A stretch of 49,989 nt of DNA, filler included, from Jimgerdemannia flammicorona (taxonomy: Eukaryota), in the NCBI GenBank assembly GCA_003990765.1. It is 2 parts of 2 records of this genome, joined end to end, with 100 filler letters (N's around TTAATTAATTAA, not from the genome) between each part and the next. Parts side by side here need not be neighbours in the genome. Positions count along the whole stretch, not along the records: positions 1 to 24,946 come from RBNJ01000902.1; 1 more part is not named here. One strand, 5' to 3'. The notes under the pieces are model-generated. The model worked only from the letters and a program-made list of their open reading frames with translations, was not told the origin of the DNA and ran no database searches. A program made the translations under genes and the position numbers. This document shows, piece after piece, positions 2,132 through 30,294 of the stretch (positions are counted from its first letter, which is position 1; each line of letters starts with the position of its first letter).

Positions 2132-4200
2132 TATATATATATAAAGTAAGGACAGCTAAGAAGATTTATCAGATCTTCAGATATGTATCATGGTTGATCC
2201 CCAACTTGGAGTATATTATAGTCTCAGACTTCAGAGATCTATCAGTCCACCATATCAATGTACTAGAAGCTAGGGTGGCTACAGAAGCCCAGTACACTAT
2301 CACTCTCAATAGTGATGAGGTAGAAGACTTCTAGCATCCCATCTTCCAGAACAACCCAGACCAATTTCTGTAAGAATTAATCTCAGTATTCCAAGGCCCA
2401 AGCATTCAGGTTAGACCTCTCCAAGATCCCACATTTGTTCCCTATTTTGTGAAAGAGAATCTCATAGATTAGAGAGCTCCTGATTTCCCCACTAAATGTG
2501 ATAATGTCATTGGTGATGATATCATCCCATATGATATATATGAAATATACAACCTACATAATGATAATGAGATGGACAAAACATTTGCAGACCTCATCTC
2601 CTTTGAAGACATCCTGACCTTGGACAAGGATGAAGTCCCTATAGTTCTGAACATTCTGCTCTAAAGTCTCTTAGTTACACTGAATAATGTCAGCACTCTT
2701 TTTCTGTATAACAGCTGTTCTTCTACTAACATTCTGATGTGATACTGAATTATTCTAGTACTATTTTTCTGTATTACTGAAATTATACCAGCATCCTAAA
2801 CCTATGCAACCATTAGTGCCAACACTGAAACTTAGCAGTTTTTCATGTTCTGGTATTTTATTTTAGTTATTGGAATTTATATTTAGCTTTATATCTTAGT
2901 AATTATTGAATTATATTTTATATAAATACTCCTCTTATTTCTTCTGAAATAAAGTCAGTCTTCTTAGTATAATACACAAAATTCCTTACAAGCAATCTAA
3001 AGAGATAACAAGATAGTTTAAAGATAAGAAGTTTGAGAACTATAAGACCTTGGGAAGGCACTCTAATAAGAACTTGCTTATAACAAACTTGAGTTAGTCT
3101 AAGAGATACACCTTGAAGAGAATCTGATGTATTTGAAGAACTTAGTAATTACTATATAACACTACTGAAAATAAAGAAGAGAAGAAATATAATTATTATA
3201 TTTATTAATTGTTTCAGTAAGTAGGCTCATTTTGTTAATAACCACTACTACAATAGCTTCAGAAATAGTATAATTATTTATTGATAATATATTCTATCTC
3301 TATAGATTACTATTAGTAATTATCTCTGATAGAGATGTGAAATTTATAAGTAACTTTTAGTAAGTACTCTTCAAAGGACTAAGAGTATAACTCAAAATAT
3401 CTACTATCTATTATCTATAGATAGATAGCTAAATAGAATGAATAAATCAAACTCTAAAGCAGATGCTTAGTATCTACTATAACTATAAGTAAAAATTGAG
3501 ATAAAAAACTAATCTTAGCCAAATTTGCATATAATAACAATATAAGTATAAGTATAAAAATAATCCCATTCTATCTGAACTATAGATAATATCTTCAAAC
3601 CTCTATAAGTATTATACATATGAGTAATAGTATCAGTAATATAAGAAATTACTAATACTATATAAGATATTATTAAGTAAGTATACAATATTCTCATAAA
3701 AGTATAAAGAATATAAGTAGTATATACTAATAAAAATAGAAAAGAAGTTACTTATGAAAAAGATGAACAGGTATTACTCACTATACAATACTTAACTCTA
3801 GATAATATAAGACTAAAAAAGAAACTTGGACCTTATTATATTAGACTATATATTTAAGATCTTAGAGAAATATAGTCTTATTATATATAAGTTGAACCTT
3901 TCAATAACTCTAGCTATATATCAAAAATACTTTTAAAGAAAAAATAGTATTACTCTAAGATCTAATTATTATCAATTAAGAACTAGAATATAAAGTCAAT
4001 TATATTCTAAATTATAAGAACTACTAATTTGGATAAGCTACTAAGTTCATCTAGTACTATTTTATAAAATGAAAAGAATACTCTAAGTATGATACTATCT
4101 GGGAAAAAGAAGATAACTTTTTGTCAAATATAGAAGAAAATATAGATATTTAGTATAATAGAAATTCTGATAAATTTCTAAAAAAAAAACAATCATATCT
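2132..4200 (+). mobile_element. Heavily mutated Ty3/gypsy pol remnant (integrase core, possible chromodomain)
   Basis: Recognisable relics FSK*AHFV (~3210), IISDRDVKFISNF* (~3320) and a decayed STAYHPQTDGQTERMNQTLEQML (3400-3470). Many TAA/TAG stops. Boundaries are approximate. Confidence 0.7.
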
Positions 4201-7151
4201 CTAAATACTTCTGATGAAGAGAAGTAAAAATAATCTGAATAATTCTATATAGATAACTTACTACAATATAAATATCTAGCAAAGATACTAAGAACAAACT
4301 AAGAATAAGATCACTATTGTTATCTTTATGACTATTGAATATCAATGAAATTTTACCAAACTACTTCTATTAATATATGAATCTCTAGAGACTCAGATCC
4401 AAATGAAGCTCAATAATATCTTAGAAGAATTCAACATTTCTAGATCTTTCACTATTAATAAGAATTAAAAAAGTACTATGAAATTAGATATCTTATCTAT
4501 CAATAGTTACTCTCAGTAGTGCTAAGTAATGAGTCTATCTTTTTTATTAACAATTATATCTATATTATTATCAAAAGACTTTATATCCTTTTTTATACCT
4601 GACTCTAAGTTCTCAACTACCTCTATAGATATCTTCTAAGAATATTGCTAATTTGAGTAATAAATAATAAAATAATATTATCTTTTAAATAGTTTAATAT
4701 ACTACTCTTCAGTTTGATGAGTATTTAGAATTTAGTACTAAATTCAATAAGTAGATTCAGATGAAGAAAAGAAGAATATAACAAATGGTTATATATTTAT
4801 AAGTTATCAGAATTTCTAACTAGCAGTTATAGATATTGAATATAATATAATTATATAGATATATATATCTTATATATTATATTTAGTTATAGCTTAAATC
4901 TATATAAATACTCTCTATAATGAAAATGTTTTAACCTCAGTTTTGCTTTCTTCAATTATAAGAATAAAGTAGTATTCTTATTATAGAACTCTCAGATTTA
5001 ACTTATTAATAATTTTGAGCCTAATTAACTTAAGATATAAGTATAGTATTTTTTACAAAAACTCAAAAGTGATACTTAGACTATACTGCTGCAATAGATC
5101 ATTAGAACTTAGTACTTCTTTATAAGAACTCATAACTTAGGACTAATAGTTATTTTGATTAACTATAATATATTAATTTTATTAATATATAGTTTTATTA
5201 TATTTTATTTCTTTATATATTATTTTTATTAGTAGTAGCTAGATTTTTATATAACCTTTTCTATATCTTTACTATAGTTTTCTATTATTTTTCTATAATT
5301 TTAATAATATTTAAAACTTATAACTAGAATTATTATTTACTATTTTTTTTTTTTTTTTTTTTTTTTTTTATCTAAATTTTAAAAAAATAAATTAATTATC
5401 AATTATATATAATATAATATTAATAAAAAAAACTTTTTACAATAATATATTAATATTTTATTTAAGTATTTCTATTTTTATATTTTTATTTTTTATATTT
5501 CTATAGTATAACTATTATATAGTAATAATTAACTACTACTATGTATATTATATTAGTTTATAATAATATATATATATTTTTTAAAAAAAAACTTCTAAAA
5601 TTTATATAATAGATTTTTTAATTTTTAATTTTAATTTTAATTTTTATAATTAATAGATAAAAATATTTAAAATCCTATAAAAAAATCTTTAATAAAATTA
5701 AAAAAACATATATATATAATAAAAAAATTTATAAACAAATTTATTTATAAAATATTACAGTATAAGAGTTAAAATAACTTTTATATATTTATTGTAATAT
5801 ATAATAAAAAATAGAAAATAGATATATATATATTTGACTATAAATCTTAAGTCTAATTTTCTAATTTAGTATAGTATTTCTATAGTTTAGAAATTATTTT
5901 ACTGTAGAATATATCTAAAATATTTATTATGATAAATAGAAGAAGTAATTTATTCAAAAAAGCCTAAGTTATATATTTTATATATTACTAATAAATAATA
6001 TAAAACTAATAGAATAGTATGTGATATAAAGTCACATACCTACATATTGAGTTACTATCTCAATACTCTCACTTAAAGAGATATATATATATCAAAACCC
6101 CCCTCTAAAAAATATCAACTATATCTAAAAAGAAAGAATGCAAACTAGAATAAAAAAGTAATACAATATATATAAAAAACTAGAACTATATATAATCCAG
6201 AATTATAACTATATAGGAATTTTTGTAGATTATAAAGTATTCTGAAATATCCAAAATATCTGCTTATAAATGAGAGATATATTTCAGATGACTATTTATT
6301 GAGATCACTAGTTAGTATCATAGAAGTCAGATAACTATATACTACTCTTACTTAATCTAATATTTTGATATTATTGGCAGATATATATATGAATGTTATT
6401 CTTAGTTAACATAGTTATCATTATTATCATCATGCTTTTAGAATATATATTATTGTTAGTAATATCTGTACTGCTGAGATTATTGGTAGTACCTATGCTA
6501 TTATATTTATACTTTTACTAACTGATTATTTATGTGAATGTTACTGGCCTTATTGGCCTTCTCTGTACTTTTGACCTTATTAGTACTTCTTATCTTATCA
6601 GTAGTATCTTATTACTGACTATATTACTGATCTTATCAGTTTTATTAATCTCATTGGTCTTCTTTGTAGCCTTATTATCTATACTGACTTCATTTGTTAT
6701 ATTGAACTCATTTAGACTTGTTGGTCTCTTTCTGATCTCATTAGTCTTATTGGCCTTTTCTATAGTCTCATCTATATTTTAGACCTTTTAGCAGCATTAC
6801 TTGTCTTGTTTATAATTACCTTGTCTGGGTTTGTTGATCTCTTCCTGATTTTGTCAGTTTTATTGACCTTTTCTATAGCCTCATTAGCTGTATCTCATTG
6901 CTGGCTATGTTACTGACCTTGTTGTAATTACCTTAACCACTTGAGAGAGCTTTATAATTGTCTTAATACCAGAGAGAATTTCACCTACTATCTAGAAAGA
7001 CTTGTAATTACCTTGAATACCTGAGTAGATACCTTTATTATAATTACTTTCTGTCATTAGAAAGGACTTTGTTATTGCTATTAGTGAGCTTTTCTTATAA
7101 TAGGGCTTCATTTTCTATTACTAGGAGACTATTATAGAGATACTCATCTTG
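4200..7151. repeat. Extremely AT-rich, TpA-rich decayed repeat DNA
   Basis: Almost no CpG, T-runs and TA runs, short degenerate repeats (TTGTAATTACCTT-like, 6800-7050). 5930-6065 recurs at ~13613-13760. No family assignable. Confidence 0.55.
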
Positions 7152-7156
7152 ATACT

Positions 7157-8649
7157 TATAAAAGGGTTGCTTTTTAGGGTAATTGTTATGTAGTTCTAGA
7201 AGGGTTTTCTAGAGGTTCTGGATATTCTGGAAGACTGTTTTCTTATGGTCAAGATCAATTTCATATGGAGTATGTCCTCTATGCTTATTGATTTCAAGAT
7301 TAGATTGATGTCTCAATCAAAGTCCTTTTTTAGACTAGTTCTGGATGTTCAGGATTTTCCATATTTCAGAAAGTTCAAGAAACTAAGACCAGCTTAGTTG
7401 AATTGGCATATCGCTGCAGACAATACCCAATTAGGAAATTTCGTAATGGGGTTAGGAGTGGGACCTAATGGGGAGTGGATTTACTTAAAAATAGTTTGTA
7501 GATTATTAAATAGGTTTATTTGCTATTCATAATATTGCTATACTAGGAGTAGTTGTGTAAAGGGATATTGTGGGAAGTGCTCAGAAGTTGTGTTCAAATT
7601 GTTCAGGTCTGAGATTCTGAGGTCTGGGGGAGGGGATATTTATACTAGTGAGGGGCTATCTGAACTATACTAGATATGGATGTAGCACTTAGTGCTTTGC
7701 TGAGTCAGAATGTAGTTACATAGTACAAGTGTGATCTGATATATCAAGAGATCGTCTGACTGCTGAGTCAGTTCACAGTCATGTTGTATAAGGCTAATCT
7801 AACTATACTATGACTGCTAAGCTATTTATAGGTTTAGGTGTTATCTGGTTAGTCTTTGATGACATCACTATTGATGACATCATCACTGGCAAAGTCTGAG
7901 CAGTTTTCTGACTTCTGACATCATCAGTTTCAAGGTATCATCATTTTTATCTCTTGCAAGATTAAGGCTGTCCTTGGTGGTGGTGGTTGTATAAGAATAA
8001 CAGGTCTTGGTTCTCTTTTTTTTTTGATCTGCTGGTACCTTTGCAAGGACTGGCTATTCTTGTCTAGAGTAAGGGCTCTCAATGTTGTAGCTAGGGGTTT
8101 GAATCTCTCGAAAATAATATTTTCTATAATCTGAGGCAATTTCTAGTAGTAATATCTGTCACATGGATGGCTTGAGATTGGTTTCGATAATGTTGGCTTT
8201 TTTGAGTTCAGATGAAGCATCCATCACTCTCTGATGGAGGTGACACAGATAGAGTGAACAGAGTTGTTCAAATGTGTTTTGCTTCTGCTAAGTAATGAGG
8301 TCTTGTATAGTCATAGTGTATCTTGGTCTTGAGTTGATAAGTGCAGTTCATGAACCTTTTGGTAGATGAGATAGAGTTCTTCTTATCTCAATTTGAGTTT
8401 GGTACCTTCGGTTTCCTTTTGTAATAGTACAGTATACCAAACTAGTTATAGCAGTTCAGAGTCTGTCTTATGGTTGTAGTACTTCTTCTAGTATTCTTAT
8501 ATCTTGGCAGTGGGTTCTCGTGCTTGCTGGCATATTTTGTGTAACCATATAATCTCTTCAGTAACTTGTTTTGTAGTCTCACATATGGTTTCCAAATTAG
8601 TTCTGAGGATATCATACAATTTTGGTAGCTTAGAGGTTGTGCACTTACA
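7157..8649 (-). repeat. Element A 3' LTR
   Basis: Begins TGTAAG after the PPT and ends in a mutated CTTACA. Direct repeat of 12043-13535. TATA-like CTATAAATA at ~7823-7831 (minus). Confidence 0.92.
7883..8314 (-). pseudogene. Decayed ~143-aa ORF in U3 of element A (second copy ~12769-13200), unknown product
   Basis: MTIQDLIT*QKQNTFEQLCSLYLCHLHQRVMDASSELKK...KLMMSEVRKLLRLCQ* in a single frame. The three internal stops are all transition-type, and one is TGG in the other LTR copy. Confidence 0.5.
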
Positions 8650-9609
8650 ACTCTCTCCTTCTTAGCTTTTGACATCCTCGTCAGGGCCTTCTAATTTTTT
8701 CTGGTGTTGTTGTACCATTTGGATGATTCTTGTGGCTATATTTGTTGAGGATTTGTTCAACTTTGTATTCTTCTTGGTCATTAATAATGACAGGTGTAGG
8801 TGGTTCTGTGGTTCAGTTTGGAAATGTGTCTTGGAATTTCTAGAGTAGTGGTCTGATATAGCTGTCAACTTTGGAAAAGTCTTCTTCAAAGTTCTCAGGT
8901 TCTCCTTTGGATGGGCAGATGGAGATGGCGAAGAGAGGGCATTTCTTGGCTAATTTCTTGAGTTATAGCTTGTTGATGTAAGTGATCTTTGGTCCAGGGT
9001 CACTAGAATTAAGTGGGTCCTTTTCGCCTTGCAGTTTGAAGTTGTAGTGTCCTTTCTTGATGGTCAGAGAATGGTTTACCCAATTGATCATGGGGTTCTC
9101 TTGTTTTAACCATAGAGTCCCAAGGATGATTTCATTGTCAGAAAGTGGTATGATTTGGAGGGTAACATGTACTCAGTAGTTGCCAATTCAGAAGGGTAGA
9201 TTGTGGACTTCTTTGCTAATAATATGTGAGGTTCCATCAGCTGTAGCAACTGCTTGAGTTTGTTGTACTGGAGAGGTGAAGACCTTGAGTCTGTTGGCTG
9301 TCTCTTCATTGATGAAGTTGCCTGAGGCACTACTGTCTATTATAATCTTGACAGGTACTCAGTTGACAAAAGCTTTAAGTGTAAGCAGTTTGTCTGATCC
9401 AATGGTGGTGATTTCAGTTGTAGGAGCTTTCCTTCTGTTGGTTCTTCTTTGAGCCAGTTCATTGATACAAGAGAAGCAATCATCAATTATTCAGAAAAAG
9501 TACATTCCAATACCATGTGGGCATTGGCCACTTGGTACATATCTGTCTTTGATCTTCTTGTAGAATTGTTCTTCTTTACTCATGGTAGGTTGGACTGGGG
9601 CCTTGTTTG

Positions 9610-10020
9610 ATGAGCCAAATCCTTTGGATCCTCAGATGATAGGTAGTAGTTCAGAGACTTCCTTGACTGTCAGGGTTGACTCAATTTTTTTGAATAGGAT
9701 CTGGGCAATGTAGAAACCTATGGGAATCTTGAAGGGTGTCCAACTATGGTTTCAGATGAGGACAATAATTTCGCCTGTGTAATCTTTGTCAATGACTCCT
9801 CCTTCTACTGAGAGTCCTTTTAATGCTAGACTACTGCAACAGCATATTCTTCTAACATATCCTTCAGGGATTTGGATACTGATTCCTGTATAGACTTATT
9901 TGACTTCTCAGTTGGAAACTGTAACTTCTTCGGCTGCATACAAATCATATCCAGCTGCCTTTTGACTTCCTTTGGTTGGGGTCTTGGCAGTTTGTCTTAA
10001 CTTGACAAAGTCCAGTGTTC
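9610..10020 (-). pseudogene. dUTPase domain of element A
   Basis: Minus strand reads LDFVKLRQTAKTPTKGSQKAAGYDLYAAEE...SSLALKGLSVEGGVIDKDYTGEIIVLI...KGFGSS, covering trimeric dUTPase motifs I-V. Confidence 0.88.
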
Positions 10021-12024
10021 TGGTGGTCAGGTTATTGAGGTGGTGCAGAGTGGTAACAGTTGCTTATATTACTGTTTGGGGTTTTCAGTTAGGGCAGGCA
10101 CTGGCCATATGTCCTGTCTTTCAGCAATAGAAGCATGCTCTACTTCTTCGAAGTTCATTTCTTTCGCCTTCAGTGAGTTTTTTGAAGGTACTTAGCTGGG
10201 TAGGTTCATGATTTCTGGGTGTCCATGAGGTGGATGTGGAGGGAGCTCGGGGTGCTTCATGCTTGGGTTCTTCTTTCTTGGTCTAAGTCTTTTTCTTGTT
10301 ATTGAATTGTCTTCAGGGCAGAATTGGTCCAGCTGTTAGGATTTGCTTGACCATAGTCTTGATTCTTGTCAGGCATCATTGTTGGTAATCACAACCAACT
10401 GGGTGGCCTTGTTCTTGGATTTTTCTAGTAAACCATTCAGGCAGTATATCGAATAAATGGTCTGCTCTTGTACCATTTTGTGCTTCATCATTGGCAATAT
10501 ATCCTAGGCCAACAGTGTTCAGGAGTGACTCGAGTTTTGTACAGAAGATTTTGAATTCTTCTTTGCTATATATATTGAATTTGAGATTGCAGAGTTTTAC
10601 TCAGGATTCAGCGATTATAATTTCACTGTGATATTGAGCAATCATGAGTTGTTTGAGTCCAGGGGCTACAGGATGGGCTCTATATCCTGGGCATTGTTTG
10701 CTACATTTTGAGCAACTACTGCAGGTCGGGTATCCCATGTAAGGAGTTTTTCAGGAAGGGTTCACCACCATTCTTCGGCAGGTCCTTAGAAGAATGTAAC
10801 AACTCAGCAGACATAGGCTGTAGTGGTAGCAAAGAGTTGTTCCAGAGTGTGGTCTTGATTGTTTGTCAGAATGCAATCAGCAACTCGCTCATTGGTCTAT
10901 TGATTGGCTTTGAAATTGGTGTCAACTATACTAATGAAGCTTTGGACCTCTTGTACAGTACCATTGAAGGTGGGTAGGCTCAGATTTTTGGTAGGTTGGA
11001 TCTGTTCAGCTAAGGCAGTAATGGTTGCTGCTATTATTACTACCTGAGCTGTAAGGTCTAGAATCTGTTGATTCACCATGTTGTTTACTGGAGGTGGTTG
11101 GACTACTGATAGTGGTGTTACTGATACTACTTGAGGTACTGGTGCAGAGTGTGATGGGGTTCTTTGGGTCTATATAAGTTGCTGAAGTAGTAGTTGTGGG
11201 TCTGGAGTGAGGGCTTGATAGATAACTGTTTATTGCTGTATAGGTGTATTCTGTCCTAATGGAGGTACTTCTCCTTCAGTGGTATATCTGGGATCAAATT
11301 TACTGAGATACTCCTCCTTCTCTTTGGTTTGGTCTCCATGTAGTTGGGTTTGCTCAGTGTCAAAGTAGACGGAATCAGTTATATATCTGATTTCAGATGG
11401 ACTTAATTCAAAGTCAAGTTCAGGTTCAGTGTTGGTTTCAGATTCAGATAGGGCTGTAGCAGGGCCTGCTTTAGGTTCAGGGTCAGGTAGTTGATGAAGG
11501 GTTTCTCTTGCTTCTTCTTTAAGAATATAGTGGGCCTTGCTGTTCTGGAATTGGTATTATAGTGCAGTCTTGGTCCTGGTATGGTAAAAGTTGGTAGAGT
11601 TGAGCCACTTGGCTACAGAGGCTTGGGCTTCATGAGGAACTAAGGCTAGAAAGACTACTGCTGGTTGTCCTAGGTCACTCAGATTTGTAGAGCTGACAAA
11701 ACTTTTATTGAGAAGAGTAAAGAAGGCTTCAATAAGACCTTCTTTATCTTGACTTGCTGGGTGTAGTACAAGGAGTTCAGTGAATAGGGTTTTGCCTATT
11801 TGCTGATTTAATTGGAGTACTTTATTCTTTGAGTGAAGTTTGTCTCACTTGTTGTAGATATGGAGGTCAAATTATCCTTGTACATCAGGTTCAATTCTCT
11901 TCAGATTGTCAGATAGTCCAGAATAAATTTCAGTTCAGAGGTTGGGCTTTATACCAACTTGTAGGAATTTGCAGAGGGGTTTTGTAGCTGAGTGAGGAAG
12001 CATCTTGAAGTGGAATTAGATTGT

Positions 12025-12039
12025 AAACTGCTGCTACCA
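12025..12039 (-). other. Primer binding site of element A (TGGTAGCAGCAGTTT, likely tRNA-iMet)
   Basis: Starts 3 nt after the 5' LTR end. TGGTAGC matches the 3' end of eukaryotic initiator tRNA-Met. tRNA identity is inferred. Confidence 0.65.
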
Positions 12040-12042
12040 AGT

Positions 12043-13535
12043 TATAAGAGGGTTGCTTTTTAGGGTAACCATTATGTAGTTCTGGAAGGGTTTTTTGGAG
12101 GTTCTGGATATTCTGGAAGACTGTTTTCTTATGGTTAAGATCAATTTCGTATGGAGTACATCCTCTATACTTATTGATTTCAAGATTGAATTGATGTCTC
12201 AACCAAAGTCCTTTTTTGGACTAGTTCTGGATGTTCAGAATTTTCCATATTTCAGGAAGTTCAAGAAACTAAGACTAGCTTAGTTAAATTGGCATATTGC
12301 TGCAGACAATACTCAATTAGGAAATTTCATGATGGGGTTAGGAGTGGGATCTAATGGGGAGCAGATTTACTTAAGAGTGATTTGTGGGTTATTAAATAGG
12401 TTTATTCACTATTTATGATATTGCTATACTAGAAGTAGTTGGGTAAAGAGATATTGTGAGAAGTGCTCAGAAGTTGTGTTTGAATTGTTCAGATCTGAGA
12501 TTCTGAGGTCTGGGAGAGGGGGTATTTATACTAGTGAGGGGCTATCTGGACTATGCTAGATATGGATGTAGCACTTAGTGCTTTGCTGAGTCGGAATATA
12601 GTCACATAGTACAAGTGTGATCTGATATGTCAAGAGATCGTCTGACTACTGAGTCAGTTCACAGTCATGTTATATAAGGCTAATCTAACTATACTATGAC
12701 TGCTAAGCTATTTATAGGTTTAGATGTTGTCTGGTTAGTCTTTGATGACATCACTATTGATGACATCATTACTGGTAAAGTCTGAGCAGTTTTCTAACTT
12801 CTGACATCATCAGTTTCAAGATGTCATCACTTCTATCTCTTGCAAGATTAAGGCTGTTCTTGGTGGCAGTGGTTGTACAAGAATAACAGGTCTTGGTTCT
12901 CTTTTTTTTTTGGTCTGCTGGCACATTTGCAAGGACTGGCCATTCTCATCTAGGGCAAGGGCTCTCAATGTCGCGGCTGGGGGTTCAAACCTCTCGGAAA
13001 TAATATTTTCTATAATCTGAGGCAATTTCTAGTAGTAATATTGGTCACATGGATGACTTGAGATTGGTTTCGACAATGTCGGCTTTCTTGAGTTCAGATG
13101 AAGCATCTGTCACTCTCTGACGGAGGTAACACAGATAGAGTGAACAGAGTTGTTCAAATGTGTTTTGCTTTTGCTAAGTAATGAGATCTTATATAGTTAC
13201 AGTGTATCTTGGTCTTGAGTTGATAAGTGTAGTTCATGAACCTTTTGGTAGATGAGATAGAGTTCTTCTTATCTCAATTTGAGTTTGGTACCTTCAGTTT
13301 CCTTTTATAATAGTATAGTATACCAAACTAGTTATAGCGATTCAGAGTCTGTCTTATGGTTGTAGTACTTCTTCTAGTATTCTTGTATCTTGGCGGTGGG
13401 TTCTGGTGCTTGCTGGCATATTTCATATAACCAGATGATCTCTTCAGTAACTTGTTTTGTAGTTTCGCATGTAGTTTCCAAATTAGTTCTGAGGATACCA
13501 TGTAATTTTAGTGGCTTGGAGGTTATGTACTTATA
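12043..13535 (-). repeat. Element A 5' LTR
   Basis: Same length as and colinear with 7157-8649. Followed on the minus strand by the PBS. Confidence 0.92.
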
Positions 13536-15342
13536 ATACTCTAGCTTATATCTATATTTATTAATATAGTATATAAACTAGAGAAGTTCTAGCTACTAAC
13601 CAGGACTTATAATCTATTGTGATAAACAAAAGAAGCAATTTATTCAAAAAAGTCTAAGTTGTATATTTTATACATTACTAATGAATAATGTAAAACTGAT
13701 GGAATGATATATAGTATAAAGTTATATACCTATATATATATTGAGTTGCTATCCTAATAATATTATTAGTAAAACTGTTCATTACCTTTATAAATTTTAG
13801 ATGAGATTTTTACATGAGATTTTACCTAAAATTATAGATGAAATTTTATTTGAAATTTTACATAAAATAAATAATTACTTAGTTTTATATTTAGTAGTAA
13901 AATTAGTATATAAATTTGTATAAGTAATAAAGTAAATAAATCTTAATCAGTTTGAGTTAATTTAAAAGAGTTCAATATCTTAATATATTTTTTTCCTCCT
14001 ACATACTTTAGGCTCAATTTGATTGAATAAGAAATTTAATATATTTATCAAACTTAATATCTACTATATTATATATATTATCTATTTGAATTATTATTTA
14101 AAAAAACTATAAATTTTATTTCTAAATAACTAAAAGCTATTAATATAACATTATAAGATTATTAAGTAAACATTCTTACTATATAACAATAATCTGTAAA
14201 TTAATCTTTTAGAATATTAATAAATAAATTTTATTATTAAACTTAAAGATAAACTCAAAAAGATTAAAAATAAATCTACAGAGTCTATTTTAATAAATAA
14301 CTACAATTTTCTTAACCAGTCTATAACTTGATTATTCTAATAGAAAACATAGTCTGAGTCTCTTAAAATTGATATCAGAGCTAAGTCTTAAAATTATTTC
14401 TATCTTTTGAGATCTTTTTGTTTTTGACTAAAAACTCTAATATAGATGAAGAGTTTATATTAAAATACTAAAGAAAAAATCAAAGTAAAGGTGAAGGTGA
14501 AGATAGAAGTACTAATATCTTATAAACTCAACATCATAAGCTCTTTATCCTAAGGAAACCCTAAATACATATATTCTGCTCTATCTATTCCTACATCAAA
14601 GTGTGCTAACTAAGATACTAAAAAGTTTAGATACTTTAAATATAAATAGCAACATATGCAAAGAGAAGGAAAAGTATTTTTATAGATAAAGGACGTGAGA
14701 GAAGTGAGTATAAATTCACATTTCTGTAGTGGGGCAAGAAAATACACAACCATAGTCAAGTCACTACCATAGCCAATCATATTCAGCCTACGTGCATGTC
14801 TATGTTCTGACCGATGACGTCATGGACAACCATAAATTGGACACCAAGAGCCGTTTTTTCTTTCAGCAACCCTCTCATGGTTGTTCCCATCCACATCCTC
14901 TGACCCTGGCATTATTAGGAAATGGTTGCTTTGAGCAAGGACGAAGCCTACTTCCTTCCTGTCGATGTTCACTAATAAAGCTGAGCCGCGACGTTGCCGA
15001 GTCTTAAAACATACCCTCGACACCTGCTCCACCTACGCAACTGGCATCCCCGATCCCCAAATCCCCACTTCCTCACCACCTTCGTCCCTTACCTCTTCCC
15101 GGTCCAATCTACCATGTTCCACGCCACCGCTAATCGGTTCAGAATACACTACTAGTATGCACGCCCTTATGAACGAGCGTATGGTGCGTGCAACGATAAT
15201 GTCGGTGTTGTGGGATTTGATGCACACATCGCTATTGACGGTGGTACATCTCTGTTGGATATCCTCTTCTTTCCTTCCCTATATATATACGACGGGGACT
15301 CGGCTGGCTTCCGATTACATCATACAACTGCATTGCCCGTTT

Positions 15343-18300
15343 TCAAAACAAGATATCCTCAAAATCCTTTGACAGCCGCCGATCGACCACAGCCGCCAGC
15401 TTCTTGCGAAAAGGGTTGAACCGCTTATCTAGGAGGGTCTTCTCTAACGTTCTCAGCACAATCGGATAGCTTGTTTGCTTTTTCAAGAGAACGATGAAGA
15501 ACGCATGGGCTCCTAACCTGGTAAAAGTCAACGCCCAATAACGCAGAAAAGTGTGAATAAAAGGTCCAGAGAAACGTAAAAGGGTTGAAACTCAAGCACA
15601 ACTTAAATAAACTGGGGAGGTTGAATGATGACGAACCATAACACCTCCAGCTCCTTAACATTGCATTCCAACTGAAATGATTTCGACATTGGTGATACGA
15701 CTCGATTTCTTAGCAGAGTGTAGCCGAAATTCAAGATATCAAAGACAGCACCTGCAAGCGTGGAGGCGTTTCAGTATCAGGATCGTCAAGTCATAAGCGG
15801 TTGTCAATGGACTTCATTCAGAGAGAAACGACAGAGCCTTACCCGTCAAGAACTTCTGGTCCTGGTGCGGCAAGCTCCGCGCATGGCAATGGAACTTCAT
15901 TGCGCAGAGCAAAAAATTTTGGTAGATGTTGCGCAGGACAGTAAAAATGGAGTTCAGGGCGGTATTGATGTAGATGGGATGACATTTAGGCTTGAGCATC
16001 CTTGGGGTACGATAAAATAATATTCCATATCGAGTGATGAGTTACGCGATTCGTCCTTTTTCGGGAGTGATGCGAATTATAAATAATAAAGCCTTAAGTC
16101 GAACGCACTGCATCATTTTGTGAACCAGCGCTTCACCGGGATGCCTTGAGTTTTCGGTCGTGATGGCGTCATTAACGTCTAAAAAGAAGCAATACAGAAC
16201 AAAGCCAAGGCAACAGACAAACGATAGAGCCATAGTTGTGAGGAATAGATGCTTGCAAAAATCACATCCGAAATTGAGTATCTGCATGACAAGGATACAA
16301 GCTCCACGATATCGCGAGTAATCAGCCTTGACATCGAGCGTTTTTGTATGCAAAAGCAGGCCGCACCAAGGAAAGTCTTGAAGTCATCATGACCGTGAAA
16401 ACATAACGTGAAGGTGTAAGATACGTGACGAAAAACCTAAAGGACCGGAAACGCTCAATTTGACTTACCCAGCGATTTTTCGAGTCTCGGAACACCGATC
16501 CCATCGATCGCGATATCGAAGTTCACCAAGCTTTTATCTTTGTTGATGAAGCAACCATAAGAGGGATGACCTGAAGCAGGAATGATAGAGCAAGTTCAGG
16601 GCGTCTGTATCTTGAATGAGGGATGAAAAAAACACAAGCGGCATTGAGGCAATACTACTGGCTATCATCACCTTTGTACATGGCCTTCAGAAAACGTGTA
16701 ACCAAATCCTTCGATAAGCTTACATACAGAAAATCGTCGACGAAGCGCAATAACATCTAGACGAAAGAAAATACCTTTCAATTCGCATGCTTAAAGCGAC
16801 GGGCATTGCACGTCTGACGCATTAATAAGTACCCCATTTGTATCCGAAGCAACAAAAGATAATTTCGTTTTTTCCAAATCTCCGTAGAAATAACTTGTGA
16901 GAATGGAAGGAGTCAACATCATGACTACGCCAAAGTCGCAACGATATTTGATGTGTGATGTCTAGCATTCTTACTTGCATAACAACGTCGATAGGCATGA
17001 CCCCTGCGGTAAACCAATAACTTGCTTGTAGTATTGCTCGCCAACCTAATTACAAGGTATGGAACGTCAGCAGGCTCCATGTTGAATGTCGATCTTGACT
17101 TAATTTCCTCGCCACATCAAGATTGAGCCTACTTTAACAAAGTTCATGCGTATATGCTCATCAAGCAATTCAAAGACGGCTTTGCGGTCCTCGTAAATAT
17201 AGACCACCTTTTAAGTTTGTTCAAAAGAAACCGGAGAAAATTAATTGCACGTTGCTCATGAAAACATAAAGTTGCCGAAAAATGAAGCAATAAGGCACCC
17301 GTACGTGGTCAACGAACACTGTTTGCCTTAACAATTGCGCCAGTTCATGGGCTAGTTCCGGAAATTCCCGAAACTTGGCTGATGATTGCAATATTGTGTT
17401 CGATGACAGAGCAGAATGCACAATGCCAAATATTATGCCCAAGGAACAATCCTTATAGGAACCGCTGTTTCATGCTTCTGTAATCACTCAAACTTCAATT
17501 ATTTGATAAGACCTACTTGTAGGATGAGCCTTCCGAATGTACGCCTTGCGTATCTTGCCAGAGGAAGGGAACATGATGGCATACCGCTGAAGCAAGTATT
17601 CATCCTAACACAAATAGCACATCGTAAAATTAGCGACAGAGCTTGTAAAAGCACCATAAGGAGACCGAATAGATATGTGGCCGATTAAGTTAGAGGAACT
17701 CTCTTACATTTTCCACCACGCTCTGCAAAATATCCAACAACTTGGCTTGATCAATAGAGTCGAAGCAGTGCGTTATATCAACCTTGGCGAAGTAGAGGGG
17801 TTCACTTTTGGAAGAGACATACATTGAAAGACGAATGTTCAACAGCGGTCGTTTCAATAAAACGCCTAAATTTCCTGCCGCCATTTTTACATACTTAGCT
17901 TTACTAGTGTTGTAAATGTGCTGCTTGAAAGTCTTGAATCTCTGATATATTTCATTCATTCCAAGCACCGACCCTCCTAAAGCCTCGGGGTGCTCGGACT
18001 TGAATTGGAAACCTGTTTCAATATCTATAAACCTCAAAGATTTCAAAGCAAGACAAAGACGGGGCTCCATTTACCTTTTCGAACGTAAGAATATGGAATG
18101 AATTCTGCAATATCATATTGATCGAACTTCCGACCCAGGGCGATGGTGTGGAAGATTTGTTGTTGAACTTGGAGGTATTCTAAATCGACGTTGTCAACAG
18201 CACCAATAACATCATCAGTTGATATAATAGCACCATTTGCATGTTACGTATATATCATCGAACATAAATTTCAGGTTCACACACCATTATCGTCTTTCGC

Positions 18301-21300
18301 CGGAGATTGATAATGGGCCGGACCCCAGTTTCTTTGGGCAGTAGCCGGATGTACGAATGGCCCAGTTTGCGCTGCGAGAGTATGCTAGAAACCTCTTCCT
18401 GAAAGCATGTAGGCAAAACAATGACATGAGATAGAATTGGCCAAAAAAAAAAAAAAAAAAAAAAATTGGAAAAAAAAAAAAAAAAAAAAAAACAGGCGAG
18501 ATGATGCGCCCGCGATAAAAGAATACTCAGATCCTCACAGAAGCCACTTCTTGAAAATTATCGGCCATTAGACGATCCAAAACTGGTTTAGAAATCTTGA
18601 CCCACAGATCATGTCTGAAATAGAAGATCCGATTGCGGTGCGGCGAGCTCTCGGTTACATAGAAATTTGTCTGAAATTATCATGTGTTAAACTGGTGTTA
18701 AGCGAGAAATATAAGCTAGTGCCACAACATTCAAACGAGAATCTGCTTCGCTACCTTGATAAGAGGAACCACAAAAGAGTCAAATAGCCAGTATATGAAT
18801 TCCATCAGCATCTCACGCCGTTTCTGTGCTTCTTCGGGCCGGACGTGCGCTTTCCGACTCGTTGGCGTCAACTTCACAGTTGCATCGGTATCAGGTTGTA
18901 CACGACTGTGGATGTCGGTGTATGATACATCCCGAGGTCTAAGCCAGAGGCAATCATTCACCTTCGATAACCAAAATAAAAGGTATGGAAGGTGGTGTTA
19001 GTATTCTACTCAATGAAATCCGACGCGTTGTAACGTAAATATCGAGGGGTTGGACAATAACTGTTACTAATATATAATAACAATTTAATAAAATAGGGAT
19101 TTCACACATGCAATTCAATCAAATCACCTTAAATCCTTGCAAAATCTCATGCAAAGAAATCGTTTCGAACTTTCTCATCCGCACAAACCGATCAACCGCT
19201 GGCGTTTATTGATAGGGCCAGACAAGAATCAAAGAAAAAGTTTTTTGTGGTGCCCGAGACCCGACGGCGATTTCAACATGCTGCACATCTGAAGAAGTCT
19301 TACCATTGAAGGTCAGCTTTCGATTGCTATCTGATCCCCAAAAATCTCGCGGGATGACAAGTTTCAATATCGCTTGAACGAACGACGATACCTAGTGGAC
19401 ATACATTATCAAAATTATAAGCATCATTTCTTGTGACAATGGTTGCATGCCTATCGTTCATTTTTTACCTGATGGTAGCTTGAGAACAGGGCAATAGGGT
19501 TTGGCGATATCTCATCATCAAGGGGCTCTAAAGCATTTCCTTGATCGGCTTCCGGTACTCTTCCATCAGTCTCGACGTGCTGTTTATTGGCAATATTTTC
19601 GACTTCCATTAAAATTTCAGCATCATTGCTATTAGTGCGATTTTGGTCGCCGTTCCATGATGCATCCGCCTGCTGCATTCCGTCAACCTGGGGTGGCGAC
19701 ACCATTATTGGCCGGGTTGATGACATTGGTGAGAGAATAAACCAAATAAAAAGAAGATATGGAGTCAGAAATGACAATCATTGAGCCTCCGTGAGTTTAA
19801 AATAGATAATGGACATAGGAATAATACTTTAGTATCAGAACGTGTAATACGCCAATTGTTCTCCACTGTATTGTTGCACCCCTATCGCAGTTATATGTTG
19901 CGATACTTCAATGTGGTATTCCACAACAACTTCTGAGATACAACATATTACAACATCCATGCATTCTTGTTGACGCTAAACAAACCTTGACAGGGCAGTA
20001 AAACATCAGCAGGTTTTTATATTGGCAACGAGAATGCAGCATCTGCATCCTTTGTACGAGCGGTTTGATGGCTCGCATGCGCCAATGGATTTTAATGGGG
20101 TTCTTTGACGCCTGGTAATGCGGGGGTATACAACATCCGTGGGTCATATAAATACACGAATGTAGCTGAACTACACCAAACGTCACATGTGTCCGCAACA
20201 AGGTCAAATACACATTGAACCCATGCGGTCCAAATCCCCTATCAGCCACATCAAACCAACCTGAATCTCCTGCGTCCTGAGAAGGAACTCCTTCGGCCTC
20301 ACAAAGCGACTGGAGGCCTCCGGCGACAAAGCGGCGGCACCAACGAACATATTCTCGAGCCCGAAATGACGTGGAAAGATGTACTTGAGGATGTGTTCAG
20401 CAGTTGCGTCCCTATTGGTGTCGCCGGAGGCAGCCGAGCCGGTGGCGGAGAGGATAATCGGATCGATGTCAGGGGAAGGGGTTACAGACGGTGGTTGTGG
20501 AGAGCGCGGGGTGGGAGATGTGCCTCTGTAACGGTTTAGGACGTCTGTGGAGAGTGTGAGCGTTTGGCAGTAATTTTGAATGCAAAACTATCTCGCGTTT
20601 CACGTATAAGCGAACAATGCGATTCTGAAAGCAGATTTTGATGAAAAGGATCGAAGCTGATACCCACGAATTTTAGGCAATCCGAAAAGAATCTCTCCGG
20701 CCATGTTGTAATTAGGTCGAGCGTAAAACATGCGCAAGCGAAAAATTTGAATCGTAGACGGAGGCTTTCCTTTTTCCGTTGTGTTAGCTCTGCTATCCTT
20801 ACATATATCCCACGTAAATGCAACCGTTAAGTCAACCGACTTGAACGAAAACGGCTCTGGAAAATGCAGCAAGCAGTACCGAAATGAGATCCTGAATTTT
20901 CTTACACGTTAGCTTTCTTTTTCTTTGCATTCCTCGCGCCTAATGCTCTATCGCTCTTAACCGCCTCTTCTATCGCGGTGTCGCTCTCACTCTTCTGTCT
21001 CTGGCTTCCACCACTGCTACTCTCGCTTTCGACACCACGATCGCTGTTTCCCACCGACCAAGACGTCTCCAAACTAGGCAAGATCTCGTTCGCCGTTACC
21101 AGTTTTACTTTCTTCTTCGGCCGCTCACCAGTCAACATCAAAACGTCGGTCGACGCTGCAACCTCAGATGGTGCCGCAATATCGCTCGTCTCCGATTGCG
21201 TGGTCTCCTCGTCTCCTCCCCGACGCTCCTCCGAAGAGCCAGCAGCACCGGCCGCAGGAGCCGTTTGCTTCTCCTTACGCTTTTTCCTTTTTCGGGATTT

Positions 21301-23247
21301 CAGCTTTTCGAACGGCACTTTGGAGGGCGGTCCCGGCGACTTGGGGGTCCCGGCTTTGCCATTCGCGTTCGTGGGCTTGACGCCCCATCCGACCGCGGTT
21401 TTCGCCCTCCTCTTCTTGGGTGGCCGGTCGATCCAGTTCAGAGCCTCGGCAGACGACAATGACTTCGTCTGCTCTTCCTCCTCTCGCTTATGCTTTCTCG
21501 ATACTTCCTCAATTTGCATTACGTTCCCCGGGCTTGTCTCGACGGACGACAACATCGTCATACACTCTTTCTCCTCTTGCTTGTGCTTTCTCAATACTTC
21601 ATCGACCTGCATATTTGTCTCAACGGATGACAACAGCGTCATATGCTCCTCTTGCTTGTACTTTCTCGATGCTTCATCGACCTGCATTGCATGTCCCAGG
21701 TTAATCTCGGCAGACAACAGCGTCATATGCTCATCTTGCTTAAACTTTCTCGATGCTTCGCCGACCTGCATCGCATCTCCTAGGTTTGTCTCGGCGGACG
21801 ACGACGGAACCGTCTGCTCCTCTTTCTTTTGTTTTTTGGGCGCCTCGACGGTCGATTTTGTATCTCCCGGACTCATCTTATCGGTTTCGTACTTCCCTGG
21901 CTCCGGAGGTGAGGCGTTAATGGTTTTCGATTTGCCCTTCCTTCGTGGCGCAGTAAGCTCGGACAAGATTGGCTGCTTAAACCGGCCTGTACGGATGCGG
22001 ACGGTCGAGTTTTGTGTGGCGGGTGGGAGCGGGAGCTCAGAGAGTTGAATGCCTATTTTCATTTTATTTATTTATTTATTTACCATTTAGGAGGTGGGAC
22101 AACGACCGGGGGGCAATGGGAGGAGTATCATTTCAAAATAAGAACACATTGTCGTTGGATTTACGTAGATCAAGTATGCACAACGAAATCTCATGAAAAA
22201 TCCACAGGGAAAGAAGATAAATGAATCCGAATTCTGTTTTGAGCGATTCTTACCCGTAAGTTGGCAGTAAGAGCCATTAGGTAACGCGAGAAAAATGAAT
22301 GTGTGCATGAGGATGTAAACCATGGCTGCGTCACCGATCCTATATGAAATGGCCAACGAGTAACGAAAATTTGTATTAAAAAAAAAAAAAAAAAAAAAAA
22401 ACCGCAAGAAGTGTGGATGAAGAAACTTGCAAGACTTCTCTTCACTTTCCTAATTTGTACATACCTCTCCAGCAGCGACGTCCAACATTGTGACTTGACC
22501 TGAGTGACAAGGGAATTTGGGAAAGGATTTTCGACGCCTTTGATACCCGAAGCGCCCGCGAGGCCGCCGTGGCCACCACCTTTTGTCATAGTTTGGAGAC
22601 GGAGCTGGATGACCAGGGTGGATTCAGTGGCCGGAATGATGAGATTGAATTATATATGTATATATATATACTCATAGTGAGGCAGATCCACCAGTCGGAA
22701 GGTTCAAAAACCGCCGTTGAGTTCTCAGCCGACTCGGAACAAAACAAAAATGCACTTTCAGCTCACCTTTTTATAACCGCGAGTCAACATGTGAGACGGC
22801 TTCCCGTTCTCCTTTTCAGAGATGCGAAATAGGGTTTCAATGACGCCATTGACAACCTGTACGATCAAAACAATCAACAAGCGTGCGAACGTTTATGATC
22901 AACATGGCATGGACCCATTATGACGTTACACACCCAGGTATCCCTGCATGTCGAACCATCCCATTATTTACACGCCCCGTCTTACCGACCTCGTTCTGCT
23001 TCCTCCCAACCTCTCCAGCGCTTCCCCGCGGGAACGCCCCCTTCGCAGCCCTCGATTCGCCGGTCGGGGACATCTCCCCAACGAGTGTCGTGTGAAGAAA
23101 TCCCTTGTAAGCCGGACAATCTGCGGTGCTGTCGACAATACGGGAGCTATCATCGAGCCTGCATACGAGGTAGTCATGCAGGGAGGTGAGGGTGTTTGGG
23201 AAGTAAGCGGAGAGGACAACGTGTTGGAGTGGGGGTAGGGGGGGCAT
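15343..23247 (-). CDS. TERT: Telomerase reverse transcriptase, ~1514 aa, 29 exons
   Basis: TEN domain (PSHMLTRGY; WTSLLERIGDAAMVYIL...QLTG). TRBD (RMFYARP..GLPKIHVLNR; YIFPRHFGL; IPRDFWGS; T-motif FIYWLFDSFVVPLIKTNFYVTES..RIFYFRHDLW). RT motifs 1/2 IRLLPKETGVRPIINL, A FAKVDITHCFDSI, B' GLPQGSCLS, C LLRFVDDFL, D GCFINKDK, E FPWCG, then CTE. Hand-called GT-AG exons: 22990-23247, 22767-22856, 22465-22604, 22254-22339, 20906-22052, 20668-20792 (or 20789), 20261-20544, 19986-20111, 19469-19687, 19304-19391, 19128-19198, 18755-18961, 18539-18670, 18285-18398, 18075-18179, 17895-17998, 17708-17804, 17517-17604, 17305-17378, 17133-17207, 16975-17045, 16833-16893, 16672-16756, 16469-16570, 16299-16376, 16109-16178, 15843-16000, 15637-15751, 15343-15517. 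These sum to 4545 nt, in frame. Confidence 0.97.
21445..21849 (-). repeat. In-frame tandem repeat (~5 units of 25-31 codons) in the TERT TEN-TRBD linker
   Basis: Consensus about RKxKQEEHMTLLSSxETNxGxxMQVDEAS, visible at both protein and DNA level. Confidence 0.9.
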
Positions 23248-23458
23248 TGTTTGTTCCTCAAGAAGAGGCGGTTATGCAAGTGATCGGCGGGCGATCAATT
23301 GGAATGGGGAATGGGGAGTGGGGAATGAGCATCAACCAAGCCACATTGGACATTCATTGGACGGACGGATGGTCACTGACGTCACTTGGTCGCCAAACGT
23401 GACGCTTCCTGTTGATGTCTGGGCTGTTTCCCGTCTGTCTGTTGTGCCAAACCTAATC
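23248..23458. promoter_or_regulatory. Putative bidirectional promoter between TERT and the 5-phosphatase gene
   Basis: 211 bp between divergent ATGs. CRE palindrome TGACGTCA at 23377-23384 and three ATTGG (CCAAT) boxes at ~23298, 23345 and 23356. Confidence 0.6.
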
Positions 23459-24929
23459 ATGCAGGAACACATTCTCGAAGCCTTGATTTCCCAGCTGCTC
23501 CGTCCCACAGAGAAGCCCATATATTGCGCATATGTGAACCGTCACGAAGAGAGTCCCCAGTCTGAGCCTAACATTTCACCCTCCATTGTGGCCATCATTA
23601 AAAGTGCACCGGCTGCCTCGAGAGCCGCTGAAGAGGCATGGTAAGTGACCCCTGAGCTGTGTGGAGTCGTGGCCTTGCAGCATCGGCCTTGCCGTTGCTC
23701 CTCCAGGATAGCATTGTATTTATCCGCTCTCCTCTCCTTTCGAACTTTTTTTAAAAAAAAAGCGTCTTTGTTTTACAGGAACGCAGCACACGCCTGACGC
23801 CAACAATCCACACATTGTTGCCGATATTCTCCGACTTTCAGCTGTCTATGGGTGGGCGTCAATCACATCCATGTCAATGCATCCTATCGCTACACTAGGT
23901 ACAGTGTCGATCGTCCCAAGTTGATAGATCATGTTCCCAATACAGCGCAAAAGCCAACCGAGCAATCACAAGGACTATCGAAATCGGGTATGTCATATAT
24001 AATCGAGAGAAAAACATTTACGAGGGCGATTTGGAAGTCGCTTGAAGGGAAGAGATCTGAAGAAGGAGGGATCTGGTCTCAGCTCTATGCAAAAATTGAC
24101 ATCCTCCCTGCGACATTGACAGAATTCGTGCTTAGCCTTACTTCCACCGCCCAAACCGTTCGTGTGGAGGTTGACAACATGGACGTGCTGCAGCGCCTGG
24201 TGAGCGAGTTGCGGAGGCTCATCGCCGTGGCGCGTAAGTTTATAGGACCTGTTCTGCTGTTTCATGTCTCATGCCCTACCGCTTGGCAGCCAGACATATT
24301 GCGTGGCACGATGTTGACCCGACATGCAACTTGATTGTGTTTTCCTTCGTGACGTAGGAGAAGAGGATTTTCGTTCGGGAGGGAACACGCACCGGTGGGT
24401 CCAGTTTTATGGCGTGTCCCGACGCCGTCGTTCGGTGCCTCACCCCGTGAGGCAGTATTCAATGCCGGTTGGGTCATTAGGTCGGTTGAGGAGCCTGAGC
24501 GACGCCGGTAAGATGGATCTGGAGGAAGGTCATTGCCCTCTTGACCTTTGCTGCCCGTTGCACAATGTTGCACTCCGTATGACCTCATCATCTAGTCATT
24601 GCCTCTAATCACGGCCCTCATTTCCACGCGCCTTTTAAACCATCCGTACCTGAAGACGAGAACACCTTGACCTCGGCCGCCTCCTCCCGTACCACCCTTT
24701 CGCGTTCCTCCACCACCTACTCCCTGTCTACTACGACCACCGACACGACCACGGCGAACCCATTCCTCACCATCGATCCGTTCGCTCCGTTGTTGGTTTC
24801 CGACAGTGCGCCGTGGTCGCCCACGGCGCTCGAGTCGCCGCGAGGGCCTAAATACGGCGTGAAAGAGCAGTGGATCGCGAAGCGGATGCGGGAGAGGGAA
24901 GGGGAGTTTGTACAGTGGGGGCATGTGCG
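23459..24929 (+). CDS. INPP5B/OCRL-like inositol polyphosphate 5-phosphatase, N-terminal exons only (truncated by gap)
   Basis: Six spliceable exons: MQEHILEALISQLLRPTE...EEACVFVLQ...IHTLLPIFSDFQLS...LVSELRRLI...THRWVQFY...VKEQWIAKRMREREGEFVQWGHVR. This resembles the INPP5B PH-like region and the segment preceding the 5-phosphatase domain. The catalytic domain is not in the window. Confidence 0.72.
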
Positions 24930-24946: not shown

Positions 24947-25046
24947 NNNNNNNNNNNNNNNNNNNNNNNNNNNNNNNNNNNNNNNNNNNNTTAATTAATT
25001 AANNNNNNNNNNNNNNNNNNNNNNNNNNNNNNNNNNNNNNNNNNNN
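24947..25046. other. 100-nt assembly gap containing an artificial TTAATTAATTAA linker
   Basis: N-runs flank an all-frame stop linker at 24991-25002. Confidence 0.95.
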
Positions 25047-30100: not shown

Positions 30101-30290
30101 AGAGAAAGTCTTCAAAGAACTCAAGAACTACATGACTATAGCACCAATCCTTATGTGCCCCAATCTACAGAAGTCATTCATCTTGCACTAATAATATTCA
30201 GATAATATAAGACTCAGACAACACTTTCTGCAATGTTTTTGATAAAAAGAAACTATCAACATAGATAGCAATAAGTATACTAGTGAGTAT
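27190..30290 (+). mobile_element. Decayed copy of family C pol (Cys-rich region, dUTPase, RT, start of RNase H)
   Basis: 27190-27385 matches 48843-49035. RT motifs [46 protein letters not shown] and YIDD (~29745). RNase H start PNLQKSFILH (~30160). Confidence 0.88.
28325..28740 (+). pseudogene. dUTPase domain of family C
   Basis: KAHPEDIEYDLHS...LISRSGL...TIDPEYTAEIKVILYN...GQKIAEVVF...KGFRSS, i.e. decayed motifs I-V. Confidence 0.82.
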
Positions 30291-30294
30291 ATTG

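Follow-up and report, generated by a model that had tools for sequence, protein, structure and literature searches.

An apparent repeat-restricted C-to-T process with graded context preference in retrotransposons of the Mucoromycota fungus Jimgerdemannia flammicorona

Repeat-directed C-to-T mutation is, to our knowledge, treated as a speciality of ascomycetes, with a CpG-only relative in the rust and smut fungi. The form found in Neurospora, repeat-induced point mutation (RIP), follows the context order CpA >> CpT > CpG > CpC and is said to stop below some sequence identity, and Neurospora also has a second, DIM-2-dependent RIP pathway. In Zymoseptoria tritici, strains with functional Dim2 carry 5-methylcytosine (5mC) in their transposons at 43-61% of CG, 10-22% of CA, 3-8% of CC and <0.01% of CT sites (PMC8016269), and in the Pucciniomycotina a RIP-like, CpG-centred C-to-T hypermutation of transposons outside the Ascomycota obeys a TpCpG rule (Horns et al. 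2012, PMC3318451). Within the Mucoromycota, Phycomyces blakesleeanus has both DIM2 and DNMT1 genes, and its 5mC lies almost only in repeats, is highest on long terminal repeat (LTR) elements and is found at CG and CHH sites but not at CHG sites, H being A, C or T (Lax et al. 2024, PMC11258239). The present analysis concerns a stretch of 49,989 nucleotides, filler included, from Jimgerdemannia flammicorona assembly GCA_003990765.1 (two parts of two records joined end to end; hereafter the window), whose retrotransposons seem to be subject to a repeat-restricted and cumulative C-to-T process that acts on both strands in the order CpG > CpA > CpC >> CpT. Its scope is this one 50-kb window and the five repeat pairs within it; the elements, labelled A to E, are set out in Table 1.

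Transitions predominate wherever two repeat copies are compared. They outnumber transversions by 121:6 between the end repeats of element A and by 82:3 between the LTRs of element B, which is a ratio of 20-27:1, and by 368:34 between A and B, 259:35 between C and B and 28:2 between the arms of an inverted repeat. For the context tally C or G was taken as ancestral at each transition site and four non-overlapping pairs were pooled, the C and B comparison being excluded. The mutated fraction is 0.59 at CpG (166/280), 0.21 at CpA (209/981), 0.15 at CpC (108/734) and 0.05 at CpT (41/893), so that CpA is mutated 4.6 times as often as CpT (odds ratio 5.6, p 3e-28) and CpC 3.2 times as often (p 2e-12), and CpA also differs from CpC (p 5e-4). 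The same order is found in the single comparisons: the LTRs of B give 0.59 for CG, 0.154 for CA (34/221), 0.063 for CC and 0/153 for CT, and the inverted repeat gives 0.33, 0.15, 0.06 and 0/53, respectively. Between C and B, 189 GC-to-AT changes fall in C and 59 in B, and the fractions mutated in C reach 0.82 for CG, 0.45 for CA, 0.34 for CC and 0.20 for CT. There is no preference for TpCpG (TCG 60/121 = 0.50, ACG 24/29 = 0.83, CCG 58/80 = 0.73, GCG 0.48) and none for CHG (CAG 0.19, CAA 0.17, CAC 0.30, CAT 0.24). The first-pass annotation of this DNA had described the pattern as RIP-like CpA>TpA hypermutation that the lack of a CpA bias would disprove; the CpA bias is real, but the label understates CpG, the most mutable context of all.

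The far end of this decay is seen in a ruined integrase, element D, at which the process was originally noticed. The relic is too degraded for Pfam, the six X-translated frames covering 2400-7201 all being without a family, and its sequence was therefore recoded into purines and pyrimidines (R/Y code); the integrase is nonetheless legible in the X-translations. In R/Y code, positions 3149-3542 align with the integrase of element B (42355-42750) across 398 columns, 83% of them matching (E 1e-64), and with a third copy, in element C (25421-25816), at 82.9%. Plain BLASTN of the relic region against the other elements gives no match except that of 5922-6065 with 13612-13759, and contigs of two public sequencing runs (X1 and X2) give no cover on 3167-3833. 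A set of 608 integrase homologues was collected, and a majority consensus was built from 60 intact ones, the first by id among the 120 listed. At each of the 85 evaluable conserved codons of the relic, seven more being gapped, the single change that would give back the consensus amino acid was sought. Forty-three of the 85 are unchanged and 31 are restored by undoing one C>T or G>A change in the relic, while one needs the reverse transition, four need a transversion and six need at least two changes; C>T or G>A thus makes up 31 of the 36 single-change differences. The present-day context of these 31 changes is CA in 20, CG in four, CC in three and CT in four. Base by base against B, the relic is skewed in the same direction, with 44 C>T to 15 T>C and 30 G>A to 13 A>G, and 15 of 69 of B's CpA cytosines survive in the relic as against 29 of 59 of its CpT cytosines.

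The motif string on which the first-pass annotation had built its case is present inside this relic, and the codon test retrieves every change that it had called at 3412, 3416, 3418, 3422, 3427, 3430, 3434 and 3439, each as one C>T or G>A; its ATG>ATA codon lies in a non-conserved column outside the scored set. Its further claim that LTR termini had been converted stands for element A, where CTTACA at 8644-8649 reads CTTATA at 13530-13535 in the sister repeat. For the ruined element no LTR pair is definable; TATAAG and CTTATA occur 19 and 9 times in the AT-rich block, too frequently to mark termini. The LTRs of B begin with TGTAAG at both 35275 and 43632.

The base composition of the window forms a gradient that follows the same contexts. 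Between 3 and 7 kb, GC content is 11-27% per kb and CpG is absent, and the RIP indices stand at 1.11-1.29 (TpA/ApT), 0.38-1.00 ((CpA+TpG)/(ApC+GpT)) and 0.13-0.84 (composite); the composite index is mostly negative in the rest of the window, including the younger copies A, B and C. GC content reaches its minimum of 6.5-10% in 5201-5800. Positions 2990-4400 hold no CG, 81 CA+TG (observed/expected, o/e, 0.65), 21 CC+GG (0.57) and 219 CT+AG (1.77), the last making up 219 of 321 C-containing dinucleotides, with TpA at an o/e of 1.22. Across the AT-rich block the CT+AG o/e is 1.55-1.77, and the profile of the surviving cytosines mirrors the order of mutability in the young pairs. CpG o/e falls from 1.07 in unique DNA through 0.41 in E, 0.20 in B and 0.15 in A to 0.02 in C and at 30-35 kb and to 0 in the AT-rich block. 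The values for CpA+TpG and TpA shift later, from 1.25 and 0.79 in B to 1.06 and 0.99 in C and to 0.65 and 1.22 in 2990-4400, and the gradient of decay can be written E < B, A < C, F < D. Left and right parts of the AT-rich block agree in composition and have a 148-bp repeat in common (5922-6065 vs 13612-13759, identical at 97% of positions in R/Y code and at 82% when bases are compared), and element A was therefore inserted into a block that was already old.

The single-copy gene region beside these repeats is free of such decay. In 15000-24900, CpG has an o/e of 1.07, CpA+TpG of 1.08 and TpA of 0.67, in agreement with the earlier observation that single-copy genes keep both CpG and CpA. At ~14700 the AT-rich block gives way within ~100 bp, CpG rising there from 0-1 to 3-8 per 100 bp. 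On composition, the changes are thus not equally frequent in unique DNA; equal frequency there is what the first-pass annotation had named as decisive against its reading. An 88-N gap (~24957-25044) lies exactly where element C adjoins the CpG-rich unique DNA, and that boundary is therefore unusable for judging the sharpness of the edge. The unique region is matched without differences by contigs of X1 and X2, runs whose type is only guessed to be RNA; the contigs skip the introns of the telomerase reverse transcriptase (TERT) gene at CT..AC joints.

The same TERT gene identifies the host. The single significant database protein matched by one of its exons is the J. flammicorona telomerase reverse transcriptase, the exon high-scoring segment pairs are 94-100% identical to it (tblastn of protein P0001 onto the window) and its C-terminal 57 residues are matched 57/57. 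A few real residue differences between the window and the database protein suggest another strain or allele. By its sequence, the source of the window is J. flammicorona or a near-identical strain (Endogonales, Mucoromycota). The taxonomy of the species (Mucoromycota, Mucoromycotina, Endogonales) together with the TERT identity means that the host is neither an ascomycete nor any member of the Dikarya, which is what the first-pass annotation had supposed; an ascomycete host, in which the pattern would have been ordinary RIP, is thereby set aside.

The direction and the strand behaviour of the changes show how they were acquired. With B as outgroup in a 740-bp triple alignment, 38 changes are GC>AT and 16 are AT>GC; a minority of this kind is what parallel hits at hot sites should leave behind, and it also measures the error of the ancestral rule. 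A paralogue contig over 2781-3048 (run type guessed to be RNA) provides an independent comparison, for which the 19 X2-supported differences within 2781-3086 were used, with 40 of 444 rows listed. Fifteen of the 19 have AT in the window and GC in the paralogue (CpA 9, CpC 5, CpT 1), one is the reverse and three are transversions. Against 20 kb of the window, paralogue contigs show transitions over transversions of 318:44 for X1 and 146:19 for X2. On the elements, sense and antisense per-site rates are 0.36 and 0.32 for CG, 0.144 and 0.108 for CA (p 0.016), 0.094 and 0.105 for CC and 0.039 and 0.039 for CT, and the members of each repeat pair are mutated about equally. In nine of ten copies there are no runs of single-strand changes and the order is random, the exception having 11 events. 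The strand symmetry and the random order imply a process on double-stranded genomic DNA, not on cDNA, that proceeds in many small steps and not in one or two strand-specific sweeps. The sense strands of B (36000-45000) and A (8000-13000) have a TpG o/e of 1.3-1.8 and a CpA o/e of only 0.9-1.2; since the changes after insertion are nearly strand-symmetric, this asymmetry seems to have been inherited by the B/A family.

The mechanism behind this footprint is, on balance, probably transposon-targeted methylation in CG and non-CG contexts followed by deamination. The spectrum and the restriction to repeats, as observed here in this host, would be accounted for if transposons carried methylated cytosines in CG as well as non-CG (CHH-type) contexts, if the marks were laid by DNMT1-class and DIM-2-like methyltransferases, and if 5-methylcytosine then turned into thymine by deamination, spontaneous or enzyme-promoted, roughly in proportion to the frequency of methylation in each context. 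Young copies such as B and A would have lost mainly CpG, older copies such as C would have lost much of their CpA and CpC as well, and the AT-rich block with its integrase relic would represent the end state, in which only CpT cytosines survive. Of the two agents proposed in the first-pass annotation, a repeat-targeted mutator or heavy non-CG methylation, one or the other does appear to be at work, given the transition excess, the CpA bias and the untouched unique DNA.

A close parallel is provided by Z. tritici, where likewise CG > CA > CC, CT is essentially spared, the pattern is confined to transposons and a DIM-2-class enzyme is linked to it (PMC8016269). The methylation levels given above for that fungus parallel the mutated fractions of 59 : 21 : 15 : 5% found here, and the CpA:CpG ratio per copy is ~0.26-0.36 here as compared with 0.23-0.36 calculated from the Zymoseptoria levels (PMC8016269). 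The host differs, Zymoseptoria being an ascomycete with RID, whereas the present host belongs to the Endogonales and RID is reported absent outside the Pezizomycotina. A survey of Mucoromycota records DIM-2-like homologues in Endogonales and Glomeromycota and RID-1 only in Pezizomycotina, and its Dataset S1 lists three DIM2 homologues for J. flammicorona AD002, proteins 471264, 479070 and 483080, which have BAH and C5-methylase domains (PMC9963178). Phycomyces resembles the present case in its phylum, probably in its possession of DIM2 and DNMT1 genes, and in the lack of any CHG preference, here seen at CAG; methylation was measured there, whereas here the footprint is seen and points to it (PMC11258239). 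The Pucciniomycotina system is likewise a C-to-T process in transposons of a non-ascomycete, but its TpCpG rule does not apply here, and the J. flammicorona elements have a strong non-CpG component at CpA and CpC (PMC3318451).

Several features are shared with the RIP of Neurospora and other Pezizomycotina, namely C>T and G>A changes confined to repeats with unique DNA spared, new stop codons (CAA/CAG>TAA/TAG, TGG>TAG/TGA), AT-rich relics with an excess of TpA, and a sharp edge. The dominance of CpA is not shared, as CpA leads here only among the non-CpG contexts, and CpT is nearly immune. Runs of changes on one strand are lacking as well; many superimposed rounds could erase such runs, so that membership of this class is weakened rather than excluded. 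RID is not expected in the lineage of the Endogonales (PMC9963178). The order CpG > CpA > CpC >> CpT and the lack of strand clustering therefore fit methylation better than RIP of the ascomycete type.

Some observations weigh against methylation-linked decay. CpA sites change at ~30-60 times the per-site transversion rate, a high figure if decay were purely passive and one that could mean an active mutator. The mutated fraction at CpC is relatively above the prediction from CC methylation in Zymoseptoria. In the evolution experiment with that fungus, >98% of Dim2-dependent C>T mutations fell at CA and CG was spared (PMC8016269), whereas CpG is the most mutated context here; how strongly a context is methylated thus need not predict how often it mutates. 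The ancestral rule hides parallel hits and scores a true T>C change as C>T, with 16 of 54 sites discordant in the outgroup test. Methylation is read from the footprint itself, the DIM-2-like genes are taken from a published table, and everything is drawn from the five repeat pairs of a single window.

A homology-triggered mutator of the RIP kind is a possible but rather unlikely alternative. In this scheme the Endogonales would sense duplicated sequences, perhaps premeiotically, and actively deaminate them independently of RID by means of DIM-2-like enzymes or heterochromatin, with CpG > CpA > CpC >> CpT as the preference for sites. Such a mutator would accommodate the very high load of transitions relative to transversions, most marked in the LTRs of B, and also the roughly equal damage to both members of a pair, the same spectrum in an inverted repeat that is not an LTR, and the sharp edge to unique DNA. 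DIM-2-like genes are listed for the species (PMC9963178), and a dim2-dependent repeat mutator is documented in Zymoseptoria (PMC8016269). The lack of single-strand runs in nearly all copies, however, shows that the changes did not arise in a single passage of RIP or a handful of them, and CpG is the top target, tracking methylation level in a way that is unlike any described RIP preference. The decay in 5201-5800 has also gone far past the identity below which RIP is said to cease. RID is reported only in Pezizomycotina (PMC9963178), and a kingdom-wide screen scores the species as 'no_rip' (PMC12543289). It is therefore with considerable reserve that the Endogonales can be credited with an active, RID-independent and repeat-directed cytosine mutator based on DIM-2-like enzymes and/or heterochromatin, and with a DIM-2 RIP-like branch that would predate the Dikarya. 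If they do possess it, it would coexist with a genome of 73% repeats (PMC12543289), crippling copies without preventing expansion.

Ordinary neutral decay of old transposons, by an AT-biased spectrum and methylation of CpG only, is improbable. CpG is indeed the most depleted context everywhere, and the most extreme block, having already been there when element A was inserted, is the oldest as well. A process of this kind does not explain why CpA and CpC are mutated so much more often than CpT, nor why the LTRs of B have 34 of 221 CpA sites changed and not one of their CpT sites, and the transition excess in the young pairs is far from an ordinary spectrum. The surviving cytosines of the AT-rich block are concentrated in CpT, which a context-free AT bias would not bring about. 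More improbable still is an APOBEC-like deaminase that would edit the RNA or cDNA of retrotransposons while it is being reverse transcribed, with the result that copies are mutated on arrival. All affected sequences with recognisable domains are retroelements and transitions dominate, as editing would have it, but the sister LTRs of one insertion differ at 82 transition sites, and the sense-strand G>A bias that cDNA editing leaves before integration is replaced here by near-equal rates on both strands. The inverted repeat, which is other repeat DNA, carries the same pattern. An artefact of assembly or DNA damage, through collapsed repeats or cytosine damage in field-collected material, might be suspected from the fragmented published assembly (N50 ~10.9 kb; PMC12543289) and the 88-N gap, but scarcely deserves credence. 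The changes obey the context rule and spare CpT, the same contig has clean unique DNA, and independent contigs of two runs agree with that unique part at every position while showing transition-dominated variation among paralogues.

A footprint of this kind appears to have escaped notice in the phylum. A 2025 kingdom-wide screen found the RIP signature to be unique to ascomycetes and scored J. flammicorona accordingly in a supplementary table (PMC12543289). That screen contrasts repeats with all non-coding DNA and uses only scaffolds >50 kb, and the J. flammicorona genome consists of 73% repeats with the low N50 already mentioned (PMC12543289); a signal like that of the window could therefore easily be missed. 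A literature search, which did not cover the species genome paper (Chang et al. 2019), returned no report of RIP for Mucoromycota, Endogonales or Jimgerdemannia. Comparison copy by copy exposes a strong, context-specific and repeat-restricted footprint in a Mucoromycota species, with a profile that points to non-CG methylation of the DIM-2 type. If this were true genome-wide, it would offer a cheap, sequence-only read-out of the methylation system in unculturable fungi, methylation-linked mutagenesis of transposons would date back before the Dikarya, and the question would arise why such a process has not kept a 231-Mb genome small.

Table 1. Positions of the repeats, genes and control regions in the window
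Feature	Positions	Strand	Basis and remarks
Inverted repeat in GC-rich repeat DNA	12-1334 (arms 12-406, 940-1334)		92.4% identical
AT-rich hypermutated block, left part	2990-7155		GC 6.5-34.5% per 200 bp, no CpG, surviving C mostly CpT
Ty3/gypsy integrase catalytic-core relic (element D)	3149-3545	+	Most degraded element, frameshifted, stop-rich; R/Y-recoded BLAST, codon test
42-base integrase motif	3409-3450	+	Canonical YHPQTDGQTER.NQ, now Y Y L stop I D S stop I E stop I N Q; sequence read
Element A, chromovirus-like, moderately mutated	7156-13542	-	1501-bp end repeats 7156-8656 and 12042-13542
AT-rich block, right part	13543-14700		Composition as left part; sharp end ~14700 beside TERT transcript
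Single-copy gene region	15000-24900		Composition control
TERT gene, multi-exon	15346-20731	-	tblastn; host marker and unmutated single-copy control
Element C, older partial B-family copy, integrase to LTR start	25047-27159	+	79.6% identical to B 41964-43579
Element B, Ty3/gypsy chromovirus	35275-44901	+	Pfam: dUTPase, protease, reverse transcriptase, RNase H, integrase, chromodomain
Element B LTRs, 1270 bp	35275-36544 and 43632-44901	+	93.3% identical; self-comparison
Element E, open gag and protease frames	~46-50 kb		Open frames

Element A is unusual in its organisation. Its end repeats are 91.5% identical to each other and its interior is 89% identical to B, and the 1501-bp terminal repeat corresponds to an LTR plus ~740 bp that are internal to B (36599-37337). 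Rather than a simple insertion, the element resembles a recombinant, or a tandem array of the form LTR-internal-LTR-internal, that has suffered an internal deletion. Contigs of X1 and X2 pile up on its ends at 7169-7835 and 11838-12504 with a summed word depth of 211-1102, which suggests that the LTRs give rise to abundant transcripts or that near-identical copies are numerous, the runs being only guessed to be RNA. In element B, the dUTPase domain (PF00692, E 2e-28) lies at 39381-39760, upstream of the protease, and is also present in several database homologues.

Element E (45500-49114) has a gag frame of 527 aa with a zinc knuckle and a protease frame of 411 aa, and its CpG o/e is only 0.22-0.26; perhaps the copy is young, or even still active, and belongs to a lineage that has shed CpG. 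The 500-bp stretch before E, at 45500-46000, has a normal CpG density of 6-8 per 100 bp. At the other end of the window, none of the six frames of 1-2801, which include the inverted repeat, matches any Pfam family. The + strand of 30001-35274 and 48687-49988 is strongly purine- and G-rich, with G at 29-37%, C at 9-14% per kb and a CpG o/e of ~0 at 30-35 kb, and with G at 42% and C at 18% at 49-50 kb. Positions 30599-31000 and 49457-49858 match each other at 64%, and both stretches have long open frames on both strands without a Pfam match. They probably belong to another repeat family, possibly reversed, that was inserted into E.

Within the unique region, an open frame of 389 aa, rich in lysine, glutamate and serine and without a Pfam family, occupies 20902-22071 on the - strand. 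It contains internal repeats, 21445-21718 resembling 21538-21802, and is covered by one X2 contig with one difference.

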